Assembly: GCA_964497235.1 (NCBI GenBank)
Contig: CAZCCJ010000009.1
Coordinates: 2,701-66,700 of the forward strand
DNA: 64,000 bases
DNA from: an uncultured Staphylococcaceae bacterium
GTDB taxonomy: Bacteria; Bacillota_I; Bacilli_A; RFN20; CAG-826
Direction: 5' to 3'
Numbering within the stretch: position 1 is the first letter of the stretch; each line of letters begins with the position of its first letter. The notes beneath the pieces were generated by a model. It was not told the DNA's origin, made no database searches, and saw only the letters and a program-made list of their open reading frames with translations. Below are positions 50,534 to 60,416 of the stretch, piece after piece. Position numbers and translations under genes: made by a program.

Positions 50534-52324
50534 TTAATCCTCTTTCTTGTGCTTGCGCTGCTTTAAGAAGAAGACGAAGGAGCCAACGGCAAGCAAAGCG
50601 GCTCCGGCGGTTACGATGAGGGCGCTTCCTTCGGAGGAAGAGACACTATTATGCAGCAGCCCTTTGACTTCGTTCACCGTAGCTTTCGTAATTCCTAACA
50701 TCGCCAAAGTCTCGGGGACCGTGCATTCGGCGTAGACGCCGGTTCCGTCGTTTTTGTTTAAGCCATAGTCGTGAGAGGCGTTGACGATTGCCTTCGCTCC
50801 GTCTGTGAGCCCGTCGTAATTGGCTTTCAATTTATTCAATTCATCGGAATCGCTTTTCACCCAACAGATGCTGCCTTCTTTGCGGAGGGATTTGAAGTAG
50901 GACATGAATTCGCTGGCTTTCTTTTGGTCATCGTTTGAATGGCTGGCGGTGCGGTATTTGATGACGCCTGATGCGCCATCGTAATCGGCATTGTAGTTGT
51001 TGTTGCCGCTTCCCAAAGTCGGGTTTGTGATCGCATCGCTTAACGCATTTATGTCGGGCGTTTCGTCGTAATTGGTCTTGATGTCATCGAAGAAGAGCAA
51101 GCCCCAATCGTTTGACTCTTGGCTTTGATCCATGAAGACCAAGTAGAGTTTTTCGCCGACGTAGCCGGTCAGATCGGCGACGACGTGCGTCAAAGTCCCT
51201 TGGCGACTGTCGCCCAAGCCATCGGCGACATAAGGGAAGGTGCCGACGTTATAGGCGTTGTTATCAAAATGGGCGAGCGTCGCTCCATCGGAGACACGCC
51301 TGACTTCGACAGCCGAAGATTTGCCGGCGATGGAATAGGAGATATATCCTTTGCCAGAGAGAGTGAAGGTCGTGCTGCGGAGGGAATAGGATTCTTTCTC
51401 TTCTAGCCCCGTGTTTTCATACCAGCCATCCCAATAATAGGTGCCGGTTTTGTTGGTCGGGATATTTTCGCCCCAATATGTTTCGGCGTTGCTCACCGAA
51501 GTATAGAGATTCGGCCTTGTCTCGCTAGAGACGGTCCAGCCGAGCGCGGTGCCGCTTTCGAATCCCGGATTGATGATACTATCGTCTCCGCTTTCGAAAT
51601 CGCTGGCAATCCTGGTGTAAAGCTCTTTCAAGCCAAGGCCGCATTTGTCGGTGAAATCTCCGCTGAAGCGGTCCTTTTCCACGTTGAACCTCGCTTTAAG
51701 CTCGGTCTTTGTTAAGCCGATTGCGATATCGTCGACCGTGATGCCTTTCAAACCTTGGGTGCCATCGGTCTGACGGATGACCAACTTCAGGCTCTTCCCA
51801 ATGCAATCGGGAAGCTGAATGAAGTTGAAGGCCAAGCATTCGGCGCGGCTTGTCTCGGAAGCATCCAAGAAATGGAGGTTCGTCAAACGCCCATATGATT
51901 TCCCGCTATCTTCCGAATCCACGACGTCTATATAAGAGGTTGAGTTGTTGCCTCCCCCGATTAAAGCGGAGATGTAGCCTTCCCCGCCAAGGGTGAAGCT
52001 GGGCGAGGTGATGGTCCCTGTCCAAGTCTCGGTGGTCTTATACATGTCCAGGAATTTGTCCCCGTTCCCATAGAAATGATGGCTGTCGTTCCAGAAAAAC
52101 GTGTTGCTGTCATTGAGAAGATCGGTTAAGGATTTCTCGTTATCGCTTATACTCCATCCTTCGAAGGGGTTTTCTCCCTCGAAGTCAAAGACGATGGAAC
52201 TTGCCCCGTCGGTTTTGGCCTGGATGGCCTTGCTAGAGGCGTTAGCGAGTCCTGCCCCGTAAAGGGTCGCGCCGAGAAGAGTTGCTGCGCTCAAGGCGAT
52301 GATGATTTTTTTGCCCATATTCAT
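50534..52324 (-). CDS. C-terminally anchored surface protein with two CBM38-like modules
   Basis: Signal peptide; INPGFESG...GW...TYWGENIPTNKTGTYYWDGW...DWGLLFFDD; C-terminal TM + KQRKHKK. Confidence 0.75.
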   Translation of the reverse strand: MNMGKKIIIALSAATLLGATLYGAGLANASSKAIQAKTDGASSIVFDFEGENPFEGWSISDNEKSLTDLLNDSNTFFWNDSHHFYGNGDKFLDMYKTTETWTGTITSPSFTLGGEGYISALIGGGNNSTSYIDVVDSEDSGKSYGRLTNLHFLDASETSRAECLAFNFIQLPDCIGKSLKLVIRQTDGTQGLKGITVDDIAIGLTKTELKARFNVEKDRFSGDFTDKCGLGLKELYTRIASDFESGDDSIINPGFESGTALGWTVSSETRPNLYTSVSNAETYWGENIPTNKTGTYYWDGWYENTGLEEKESYSLRSTTFTLSGKGYISYSIAGKSSAVEVRRVSDGATLAHFDNNAYNVGTFPYVADGLGDSRQGTLTHVVADLTGYVGEKLYLVFMDQSQESNDWGLLFFDDIKTNYDETPDINALSDAITNPTLGSGNNNYNADYDGASGVIKYRTASHSNDDQKKASEFMSYFKSLRKEGSICWVKSDSDELNKLKANYDGLTDGAKAIVNASHDYGLNKNDGTGVYAECTVPETLAMLGITKATVNEVKGLLHNSVSSSEGSALIVTAGAALLAVGSFVFFLKQRKHKKED

Positions 52325-52339
52325 TTCCTCCTTATAGGT

Positions 52340-58035: not shown

Positions 58036-60416
58036 GATGAGACCCCCAAATCGTATAAGGAGAGGCTTTTGATGGAGGTGCTAGGGCCAGCGGAGAAAAG
58101 CGAGAGCCCTCCTGCGGAAAGATCTTGGGTATAAGCGCGTGCGGAGATCGTTTTCGAATCGTTGAAGAAAGCCTCCACCGCGGAGTTGTCCACGAAGAGG
58201 TCGAGCTTCGCCTGGGCGTCAAGAGCAAGAGGCCCGCTGGCTTTGCTCCCGGAGACCTTCGAACTCCTCTTGTTGAGTTCGGGATTGATTGAAACGAGCT
58301 CCTCTTCGGCATTGAAGACGATTTCGGTCTTCTCATCCTTATCGCTAGAGACGAGGGCGGAGACGCCGAAAGAGGCATCCCCTGCGTAATTTGCGAACTC
58401 GACGCTCATGCGGTAGGCTCGCCCAGAGAAGGAAGACAAGGCGCTATTTGCCTCGCTTAGGCTCGTTTCGCCTAGCTCAAGCACCTTTTTCCCACTATTT
58501 AGGGCGCTAGGGACGGGCTTTATGAGGAGCTTGCCGTCTTTGATGGTCAATTCGCGGTAAAGCCCAACGTTATGTGCCCAGCCGGAGGAGGCGTGTTCGC
58601 CGGATTCCCTTTGGTCCTGCATGACGCTAGCCATGTAGACTTTGTTGGTGAGGGGGTCGACGAAGGCGCTTGGGCCGGTGAAAACGTTGTTCCCGTAGTC
58701 CATCCTCTCGGGGTTACCATAGGTATCGGGGATGAAACGGTAGCTGCTTTTGTCGAAGGAGCCGATCCAATAGACGATGTTGTTGTCGGCGGTTTCCGCC
58801 GGGGCAGGGGAGATGATGAGGATATATTTGCCACTGTCTTTTCCATCTTGCTCGCTTAAAGGAAGCAAGACGGGAAGCTCCCAAACCGAGCCCAGCGAAC
58901 TATCTTGCTCGGGATAATCGAAAAGCACCCCGCGGTATGTCCAATGGTGCATCGGGTCGTTCTCTTTCTTATCTGCGGTATAAAGCAAGACGCAGCCTTT
59001 GCCGCTATCTAATCCGCTGCCGACAGTCATGTAGTAAGTATCGTCTTCGATATGGATGTTCGCGTCGCGGAATTCCCCGGTTCTCCCTTGGCCCTGTTGC
59101 TGGGCGAGGGCGAGCTTTGGGCTGATCTCCCATTCCTTGAGATAGGGATCGTTTGGATCCTTGGGCGTGGCAAGCCCGATGTTTTGGTTGGAGATGAGTC
59201 CGCTATGGGCATAATCCCCCGCGGTGAAAAGCAAGACAGGGACGTCTTCGACGCCGTTTACGGTTGCGTAGGTCGACCCGCCGCTCCATACCCCATCAGG
59301 GCAAACCGAGCCAATGGTCGGGACGATCGCTTCTTGGACTTGCTTCCAATGCATCATGTCCTCACTCACGAGATGGCCCCAGCGGATGCCGGAAGCGCCG
59401 TTGAAATAGGGGCCGAGGGGGTTGGACTGAAAGAAAAGATGGTAGATGCCTTTATAATAGATCGGCGCATGGGGCTCATTCATCCAATGCTCACTTGGGC
59501 CGCCATGGTAAGTCACGTGGTCGGCGTCGCTATTCCTGAGGTCGTCTTGCAACCAGATATCCTCGAAGGATATGGAGGGGATGCCATTAGAGGCAACTTC
59601 TTTGTATTCGCTGCCTATTTCTTTGCCACTAGCTGCCTTTTTGCTGAGCTTCACTTCGTCTAATAGCCCGCTTACTACGCCCTGCAGGCAAGAACCGCTA
59701 GTGGAGCTCACCGACGATTTGCCGACGTAGAGAGGGCTGTCGATTTTTTGGATGGAGGAGCCTTTGGGGATGTCTAGCCTATCGATGAGACGTCCATTGA
59801 GGTAAAGGCGCATCTCGCCGCTATTCCCGTCGAACACTCCCGCGACGTGGTTCCATTCCATTAAAGAAAGCTCGATTTCCTCGCTATTTACCGAATACCA
59901 GTTTTCCCCGGTGCCGACGGAGAAGATGAAGTTGCCTGGGCGGTGGTAGCCAAGCACAAACCCCGCGCTATAGGAATCGTCGTGATAGTACTGGGAGACG
60001 ATGCCGGTTAGGTAGGTGGCGTCTTTGATGTTGGTCGCGCTGTCGTCGTAATCATAGGCCCTGGGGGCGACCCAAGCGGAGACGGTGAGGGACTTCCCTT
60101 CGATGGAAAGCTTCTCGGATGGGTAAGAGAGATAGGTGCTGTAACCGTCGAAAAGGAGAGCCTCTCCTTTTACCCCGCTTTTGTATGAAGGGTAGATGGG
60201 CGAAAGCAAGGAGGCGCTGTCCTTATAGACGGAAGAGAGGGTGACGTCCTCTTGCTTCCCCGAGGAATCGGCGACGAGATAATCCTTGCGTTTAGAGAAG
60301 GCAAGGTGCAGACATTCGGAATCGTCACTTGGCTTGTCCTTGGATGAAGAGGTGCCACATCCATAGAGAGAGACGCAGGTTAACAGCGAAGCCAGCAGGA
60401 AAGACTCTTTGCGCAT
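58032..60416 (-). CDS. Lipoprotein: LamG-like domain + WMNE-type GH32 (endo-inulinase / CFTase-like)
   Basis: Lipobox SLYGC (start 60416); GVKGEALLFDGYSTY..WVAPR; HWMNEPHAP, DGVWSG, EFRDA, VWELP, GWAHN. Confidence 0.85.
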   Translation of the reverse strand: MRKESFLLASLLTCVSLYGCGTSSSKDKPSDDSECLHLAFSKRKDYLVADSSGKQEDVTLSSVYKDSASLLSPIYPSYKSGVKGEALLFDGYSTYLSYPSEKLSIEGKSLTVSAWVAPRAYDYDDSATNIKDATYLTGIVSQYYHDDSYSAGFVLGYHRPGNFIFSVGTGENWYSVNSEEIELSLMEWNHVAGVFDGNSGEMRLYLNGRLIDRLDIPKGSSIQKIDSPLYVGKSSVSSTSGSCLQGVVSGLLDEVKLSKKAASGKEIGSEYKEVASNGIPSISFEDIWLQDDLRNSDADHVTYHGGPSEHWMNEPHAPIYYKGIYHLFFQSNPLGPYFNGASGIRWGHLVSEDMMHWKQVQEAIVPTIGSVCPDGVWSGGSTYATVNGVEDVPVLLFTAGDYAHSGLISNQNIGLATPKDPNDPYLKEWEISPKLALAQQQGQGRTGEFRDANIHIEDDTYYMTVGSGLDSGKGCVLLYTADKKENDPMHHWTYRGVLFDYPEQDSSLGSVWELPVLLPLSEQDGKDSGKYILIISPAPAETADNNIVYWIGSFDKSSYRFIPDTYGNPERMDYGNNVFTGPSAFVDPLTNKVYMASVMQDQRESGEHASSGWAHNVGLYRELTIKDGKLLIKPVPSALNSGKKVLELGETSLSEANSALSSFSGRAYRMSVEFANYAGDASFGVSALVSSDKDEKTEIVFNAEEELVSINPELNKRSSKVSGSKASGPLALDAQAKLDLFVDNSAVEAFFNDSKTISARAYTQDLSAGGLSLFSAGPSTSIKSLSLYDLGVSS

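Follow-up and report, generated by a model that had tools for sequence, protein, structure and literature searches.

A putative fructan utilisation locus with a LamG-GH32 lipoprotein and stand-alone CBM38 proteins in an uncultured Staphylococcaceae bacterium

Inulin is used more widely than any other prebiotic, yet the steps by which it is captured at the surface of Gram-positive gut bacteria are poorly described. Fructan loci that combine GH32 enzymes with an ABC importer and a LacI regulator (plus fructokinase) are established in gut Firmicutes (Sheridan et al., 2016; PMC5320581). Two further kinds of described fructan-active enzyme are endo-inulinases and cycloinulo-oligosaccharide fructanotransferases (CFTases), the latter forming cyclic products of DP6–8 by intramolecular transfructosylation. 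The endo-inulinase EnIA of Arthrobacter sp. S37 (EC 3.2.1.7; 2439-bp gene, 813 aa, 75 kDa) releases F3–F5 products and has a catalytic triad of nucleophile E323, D460 and acid/base E519 that was confirmed by mutagenesis (PMC5984348), and the fungal endo-inulinase INU2 likewise has a Glu nucleophile, in WMNEPNG (PMC5245892). The binding module family CBM38 takes its definition from the N-terminal region of the Paenibacillus macerans CFTase (residues 32–389, two β-sandwiches), a region described as binding levan and inulin with low micromolar affinity (PMC10076258). Here we analyse a stretch of 64,000 nucleotides, referred to as the window, from an uncultured Staphylococcaceae bacterium (assembly GCA_964497235.1, contig CAZCCJ010000009.1, positions 2,701–66,700), whose minus strand carries five adjacent fructan-related genes, here called A to E, within a larger operon.

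The locus is probably a Gram-positive polysaccharide utilisation locus (gpPUL) for inulin-type fructan, with a surface endo-inulinase, stand-alone CBM38 binding proteins and linear products. The separation of the LamG-GH32 enzyme from the multi-module proteins recurs in many other genomes.

Enzymes of the locus and their CBM38 modules

Enzyme A (58032–60416) is a 794-aa surface lipoprotein (N-terminus with lipobox, MRKESFLLASLLTCVSLYGC) in which a LamG domain (Laminin_G_3, E 5e-20; residues 60–290, 59547–60239) is followed by a GH32 domain (Glyco_hydro_32N for the five-bladed propeller, E 2e-53, 182.6 bits; Glyco_hydro_32C for the C-terminal β-sandwich, E 1e-18, 68.2 bits; curated cut-offs ≈22). 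An earlier sequence-only reading of the window had pointed to this protein and to its unusual motifs WMNEPHAP, FRDA and WELP, and all of them are present: WMNEPHAP at residues 311–318 (codons 59463–59486), FRDA at 449–452 and WELP at 512–515. In a phmmer alignment they fall on WMNDP, FRDP and ECP of the Thermotoga invertase 1UYP. Since they align exactly with these catalytic positions, the triad of A is predicted to be E314 (nucleophile), D451 (transition-state Asp) and E513 (acid/base).

The same nucleophile motif is found in 119 of the 120 best homologues of A. We also surveyed 122 fetched genome loci, which were scanned with our own profiles, and in the motif classes tabulated from their 162 LamG-GH32 cores and from A the nucleophile column is always Glu. 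The Glu-type nucleophile motif is a family trait rather than a local oddity. WMNE..H.P, FRD and WELP are common to fused and stand-alone members of this LamG plus Glu-nucleophile subgroup, and A has the features of the subgroup. Its nearest relatives are lipoprotein LamG-GH32 proteins from gut metagenome-assembled genomes (MAGs) with 54 and 51% sequence identity, and the closest genome match is an Erysipelotrichaceae MAG contig (90% identity). Some gut loci (L002, 5193–9991, and L003, 7602–12343) contain two tandem lipoprotein LamG-GH32 paralogues, 39–46% identical to A, in place of a single one, which hints at sub-specialisation, e.g. by chain length or linkage. The idea that the LamG domain of A is a CBM66-like levan binder was dropped, as the LamG profile matched only generic LamG and pentraxin structures.

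The two other GH32 enzymes are of the classical type. B (55963–58035) is a surface lipoprotein in which one CBM38 module (residues 35–194, 57454–57933) is followed by a GH32 domain (261.2 and 97.2 bits for Glyco_hydro_32N and 32C, cut-offs ≈22) with WMNDPNG at residue 228, RDP at 350 and ECP at 406. C (54576–55961; 281.7 and 34.6 bits with the same profiles and cut-offs) has the same canonical motifs, lacks both signal peptide and lipobox, and probably starts at its second Met, M21 (MNRPLYHYTPKQGWMNDPNG), judged against other GH32 N-termini. Both are closest to exo-acting β-fructofuranosidases and sucrose-6-phosphate hydrolases (7VCO, 7BWB, 3PIG). B is a predicted exo-β-fructosidase, and C a predicted cytoplasmic β-fructofuranosidase acting on imported oligosaccharides.

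No CBM38 module is present in A, and the six modules of the locus sit on B, D and E. D (52340–54574) is a non-catalytic lipoprotein with three modules at residues 37–211, 236–397 and 532–703 (53942–54466, 53384–53869 and 52466–52981). E (50534–52324) is a secreted protein with two modules at residues 42–209 and 248–424 (51698–52201 and 51053–51583) and a helical stalk. This is the three-two-one distribution given in the sequence-only reading, which had recognised the modules by the pattern N.GFE.G...GW. The literal pattern could be found in only four of them, being degenerate in the first modules of D (ANSSFEDGLANW) and E (FDFEGENPFEGW), but all six are homologous. They align across ≈165 columns, and BLASTP comparisons between proteins gave E-values of 1e-15 to 4e-5; the third module of D and the second of E are 39% identical (E 6e-54).

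The modules had no meaningful match in Pfam or NCBIfam, and a word-indexed homologue search with the six-module alignment returned no matches. We instead used an exhaustive HMMER search of 1.84 billion representative proteins, in which the six-module profile matched 1908 clusters at E ≤ 0.001, 245 of them even at E ≤ 1e-30. The recurrence of the module family is far beyond chance. Among the top 150 module proteins, 20–21 also carry GH32, mostly of the LamG plus Glu type and mostly arranged as modules-LamG-GH32-module. A further homologue search reached two characterised CFTases, that of Niallia circulans (O52973, P0321, 1503 aa), named as cycloinulo-oligosaccharide fructanotransferase, and that of Paenibacillus polymyxa (P0360, 1333 aa). 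With our profiles the N. circulans enzyme has modules at residues 58–228, 243–413 and 424–560, LamG at 585–808, GH32 at 815–1310 with the motifs NWMNEAHAP, FRDP and WELP, and a further module at 1332–1492. The architecture of three repeats, LamG and GH32 given in the sequence-only reading is thus found in this enzyme, together with a fourth, C-terminal repeat.

D, E and B match the repeats of these two CFTases with E-values of 1e-35 to 1e-9 and 29–35% identity (BLASTP), and the first two repeats of the N. circulans enzyme reach 129 and 124 bits with the profile of the window modules. As they are homologous to the repeats of characterised CFTases, we assign all six modules to CBM38 by sequence, the family named in the sequence-only reading. 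In a dbCAN annotation from the literature, a Defluviitalea protein (three CBM38, GH32 and one CBM38; PMC7355431) has the same layout as the fused proteins mapped here, at nearly equal coordinates.

Among PDB sequences, neither D nor the module profile had a significant match; the insignificant ones (CBM61, CBM22 and a porphyran CBM) were confined to the NGGFE..GW start. An AlphaFold2 model of D that draws on 12 orthologues has a mean pLDDT of 84.6 and contains three β-jelly-rolls, with an insert of ≈130 residues between modules 2 and 3 that forms a helical linker and a small β-sandwich. The best single-domain Foldseek matches of the model were a porphyran-binding CBM (8XMZ, TM-score 0.64) and CBM4-2 (1K42, TM-score 0.54), so the modelled module fold is a generic CBM4/9-like one. 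The signal of E is cleavable and lacks a Cys; at its C-terminus the protein has a transmembrane anchor, a hydrophobic helix (50564–50632) followed by KQRKHKKED, and no LPXTG motif.

The C-termini of D-type proteins share a short motif (..I/L-P-W..A.N..), located in D at residues ≈720–744 (52340–52420) and also found at the end of P0126, P0129, P0134, P0141 and others. In the model of D it includes a confident final strand (732–736) after a low-confidence linker (717–727). Also in the module family are giant proteins that are non-catalytic and have as many as ten CBM38-like modules, such as P0123 (3900 aa, 10 modules), P0147 (3220 aa) and P0162 (2319 aa). In giants of this type the long N-terminal regions are unassigned, and the C-terminus FRVVDNSTxxYGCFVVDDFRxNL...EGFIAAIQ recurs.

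Spread of the split arrangement

The split layout, i.e. a stand-alone LamG-GH32 gene and a stand-alone gene for a protein with at least two modules in the absence of a fused gene, was found in 40 of the 122 loci, usually with the two genes adjacent. The MAGs that carry them are labelled Oscillospiraceae, Lachnospiraceae, Christensenellaceae, Clostridia, Bacilli and Erysipelotrichaceae and originate from rabbit, ruminant, chicken and human samples. The five-gene order of the window is exactly repeated in three loci (L046, L070 and L059). Fused forms prevail in Paenibacillus, Cohnella, Bacillaceae and some Actinobacteria. Distribution of the parts over separate proteins, as described in the sequence-only reading for this one locus, is a conserved arrangement that is widespread in uncultured gut Firmicutes. 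Full-text literature searches returned no description of such split fructan machinery, only of general fructan gpPULs.

The association of module genes with GH32 is strong: GH32 is present in 37 of the 47 loci with stand-alone module open reading frames (ORFs), which usually lie directly beside the LamG-GH32 gene. Among the ten module loci lacking GH32, five (L064, L066, L119, L074 and L122) are on short fragments or on fragments whose end is close to the gene. The other five (L095, L113–L115 and L117) encode module-only proteins with no GH32 within 10 kb. These five loci have tandem two- to four-module genes and belong to Izemoplasmatales, Mycoplasmatota, Bacilli and one rumen Clostridia MAG.

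The operon and its proposed function

Genes A to E belong to one tightly packed ten-gene operon on the minus strand (48630–63621), in which all neighbours overlap or lie no more than 15 nt apart according to the ORF list. The sequence-only reading had delimited the locus as 50534–60416; the features it listed are present there, but the cytoplasmic enzyme C went unmentioned, and the operon extends on both sides to include an ABC importer, a regulator and a kinase. At its upstream end is an ABC sugar-binding lipoprotein (62266–63621; Pfam SBP_bac_1, E 5e-23) with a likely true start at MKNVLKLSLVLMTTATLVGC, preceded by GGAGG. A structure search found no close solved homologue of this protein from which a specificity could be inferred. 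Permease 1 (61317–62264) overlaps its neighbours and has a sequence typical of binding-protein-dependent permeases, and permease 2 (60419–61324) has its stop codon 3 nt ahead of the start of A. Downstream of E are a LacI-family regulator (49552–50532; Pfam LacI and Peripla_BP_3) and a PfkB-family sugar kinase, a predicted fructokinase (48630–49568; Pfam PfkB, E 7e-40). Lipoprotein signal peptides were identified in A (LYGC), B (LLSC), D (LLSC) and the binding protein (LVGC). Glycoside hydrolases, a carbohydrate transporter and a transcriptional regulator are thus co-located, which is the defining content of a gpPUL.

An inverted repeat with 6-bp arms, TGGAAAcaTTTCCA (63685–63698), lies ≈65 nt upstream of the start codon of the binding protein and is a possible LacI-type operator for the regulator of the operon. 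A promoter and terminator scan inside the operon was uninformative, as promoter-like sites were fewer than in shuffled sequences. The G+C content is 51–55% over positions 48000–64000 of the window, which contain the fructan operon, compared to 41–49% in the first 48 kb, and this higher value suggests that the locus was horizontally acquired.

The window contains a second sugar-utilisation operon on the plus strand (25212–42675), with genes for a tyrosine-phosphatase-family protein, a binding protein, two permeases, a 999-aa protein without Pfam match, a DUF4838 protein, a Big_2 protein, a GH127 protein (β-L-arabinofuranosidase family) and a Listeria-Bacteroides-repeat protein. A GH37-type trehalase without obvious signal peptide is encoded just before the fructan operon (46875–48092, plus strand).

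For the fructan operon we propose the following order of events. The LacI repressor would control the fructan genes, which would be expressed as one operon. D and E, held by lipid and by membrane anchor, respectively, would retain the polymer at the cell surface, where A would cut the fructan chain internally into linear fructo-oligosaccharides and B would trim from the chain ends. The oligosaccharides would be taken up by the ABC importer and hydrolysed by C to fructose (plus glucose or sucrose), and the fructose would be phosphorylated by the PfkB kinase. An endo mode for A is suggested by its length and by the numbering of its predicted triad, both of which fit the published values for EnIA. 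Loci of this type suggest a dedicated machinery consisting of a tethered endo-inulinase and stand-alone multi-CBM38 binding proteins. If confirmed, they would pinpoint uncultured taxa that are primary inulin degraders and not cross-feeders.

Some observations weigh against this proposal. The match between A and EnIA is one of published length and residue numbers only, and A is as close to CFTases (36% identity) as to anything else characterised. Because some module-only proteins have no GH32 nearby, the module family is not necessarily fructan-specific throughout, and it may serve other glycans or functions too. With regard to the inulin linkage, many of the related loci come from herbivore guts, in which grass fructans dominate.

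Alternative readings and comparison with known systems

The last of these points leads to the alternative that the same capture and import system is aimed at a β-2,6 fructan (levan or grass graminan), with A as an endo-levanase or mixed-linkage endo-fructanase. Most of the related loci are from MAGs of rabbit, ruminant and chicken guts, and the CBM38 of a CFTase is reported to bind levan as well as inulin (PMC10076258). However, the characterised Glu-nucleophile LamG-GH32 members, EnIA and the CFTases, all act on β-2,1 inulin. The characterised endo-levanases BT1760 and LevB1 represent different GH32 lineages, and the match of LevB1 to A, at only E 7e-12, is confined to the first ≈80 residues of the GH32 domain. 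We therefore regard a β-2,6 target as rather unlikely.

D and E might also be adhesins or structural surface proteins with a generic β-jelly-roll module rather than fructan binders. Modules of CBM4/9/22/61 type share the NGGFE..GW start, the best fold matches of D are generic CBMs, and the module-only proteins of other lineages would fit such a role. Yet D and E specifically match the CBM38 repeats of CFTases, with E-values down to 1e-35, their genes lie inside the fructan operon, and the pairing of a LamG-GH32 gene with a multi-module gene is conserved across MAGs of Oscillospiraceae, Lachnospiraceae, Christensenellaceae, Clostridia and Bacilli. This makes it improbable that the two proteins do not bind fructan.

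The sequence-only reading had regarded the locus as a split CFTase that might make cyclofructans. Its first element survives in part, as A has the LamG plus Glu-type GH32 core common to two characterised CFTases and aligns with the CFTase core across 764 residues. The identity, however, is only 36%, and A is alike 35–36% identical to CFTases, to the cytoplasmic stand-alone LamG-GH32 proteins of Paenibacillus and to other fused types, while CFTase cores are 88–89% identical to one another. All 36 cores of the CFTase clade have NWMNEAHAP, whereas A reads HWMNEPHAP and shares WMNEPH(A/G/S)P with every other clade. In a neighbour-joining tree, A falls within a 44-tip clade consisting almost entirely of gut-MAG lipoprotein LamG-GH32 proteins, separate from a 37-tip clade of fused proteins with three modules, LamG, GH32 and a further module. 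The tree is crude (Kimura distances, no bootstrap) and was used for clade membership only, not for branching order. The 37-tip clade was equated with CFTases by its architecture, its NWMNEAHAP motif and its 88% core identity, both characterised CFTases being outside the tree. Searches of the genome collection with patterns from P0146 and with NWMNEAHAP DNA reached many Paenibacillus species, P. macerans and P. polymyxa not among them. Based on the identity, the tree and the missing NWMNEAHAP, A was ruled out as a CFTase orthologue.

Gene context also differs. Ahead of the CFTase gene in Paenibacillus and Cohnella lies a gene for a stand-alone LamG-GH32 protein of ≈760 aa, which is signal-less in 42 of 44 cases. 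The order in P. illinoisensis is binding lipoprotein, cytoplasmic classical GH32, cytoplasmic LamG-GH32 and secreted CFTase (L012, 1830–10551), and in L005–L037 and L075–L082 the secreted CFTase gene likewise immediately follows genes for a signal-less LamG plus Glu-type GH32 and a cytoplasmic classical GH32, with a binding lipoprotein gene upstream of these. By analogy with the cyclodextrin pathway, the cytoplasmic Glu-type LamG-GH32 of Paenibacillus is a candidate ring-opener, and the Paenibacillus/Cohnella arrangement looks like a complete pathway for making, importing and reopening cyclofructans. In the window and its gut relatives, 40 of 47 LamG-GH32 proteins have a lipobox. The window locus has no cytoplasmic LamG-GH32, and its only cytoplasmic GH32, C, is of the classical exo type, which requires a free chain end. 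Were A to form rings, the locus would hold nothing obvious for opening them, and because no signal-less LamG-GH32 is present, cyclofructan production is unlikely. Thus, even with all CFTase parts present in the locus, it is very improbable that A is a cyclising fructanotransferase served in trans by the CBM38 modules of D and E, possibly in a surface complex, with the cyclofructans imported as a cyclodextrin-style private nutrient in a naturally split CFTase of strictly anaerobic gut Firmicutes.

As a gpPUL for inulin-type fructan, the locus resembles the fructan gpPULs of Roseburia and Eubacterium rectale in its GH32 enzymes, ABC importer with binding lipoprotein, LacI regulator and fructokinase (Sheridan et al., 2016; PMC5320581). 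In the accessible part of that paper the E. rectale loci Eub-3 and Eub-4 are tabulated with a single GH32, one gene has a CBM66, and neither a LamG Glu-type enzyme nor a stand-alone CBM38 protein is mentioned, whereas the window has both. The locus follows gpPUL fructan logic with the addition of a Glu-type GH32 of predicted endo type and dedicated non-catalytic CBM38 proteins.

The published numbers for EnIA place it close to A in format. Both are stand-alone enzymes of ≈800 aa with a Glu nucleophile (E323 and E314, respectively), and the spacing from nucleophile to Asp is 137 residues in both, that from Asp to acid/base 59 in EnIA and 62 in A. Because residue positions and spacings match, the same N-terminal extension of ≈300 residues is implied for the two enzymes. 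EnIA is a secreted soluble actinobacterial enzyme, while A is a lipoprotein encoded in an operon with CBM38 proteins.

Non-catalytic glycan-binding proteins at the cell surface are known from SusE, SusF and other lipoproteins of Bacteroidota polysaccharide utilisation loci, and Ruminococcus bromii has non-catalytic CBM proteins. Like these, D and E are non-catalytic, tethered proteins with tandem β-sandwich modules, encoded beside enzymes and transporter. There is no sequence relationship to SusE/SusF, and the window system has ABC uptake in place of an outer membrane and a SusC/D pair. Neither the SusD fold of TPR type nor the SusE/F family was found in D or E with Pfam, NCBIfam and the AlphaFold2 model of D. 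The likening of D and E to SusD and SusE in the sequence-only reading holds with respect to non-catalytic surface proteins, but for SusD it is an analogy of function only; the tandem β-jelly-rolls, as modelled for D, appear conceptually nearer SusE/F.

The CFTases (N. circulans O52973, 1503 aa; P. polymyxa/macerans, 1333 aa) consist of the same blocks as the window proteins, namely CBM38, LamG and Glu-type GH32 with FRD and WELP. They form one secreted chain with CBM38 repeats both N- and C-terminal to the core, whereas A has none and the blocks of the window are distributed over four membrane-tethered proteins. The cytoplasmic LamG-GH32 of the Paenibacillus CFTase loci likewise has no counterpart here. 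Fused, secreted enzymes of soil bacteria and the split, tethered proteins of gut bacteria together represent a clean natural experiment on the repackaging of modular enzymes for different lifestyles, and their contrast offers a handle on the features that make a CFTase cyclise.

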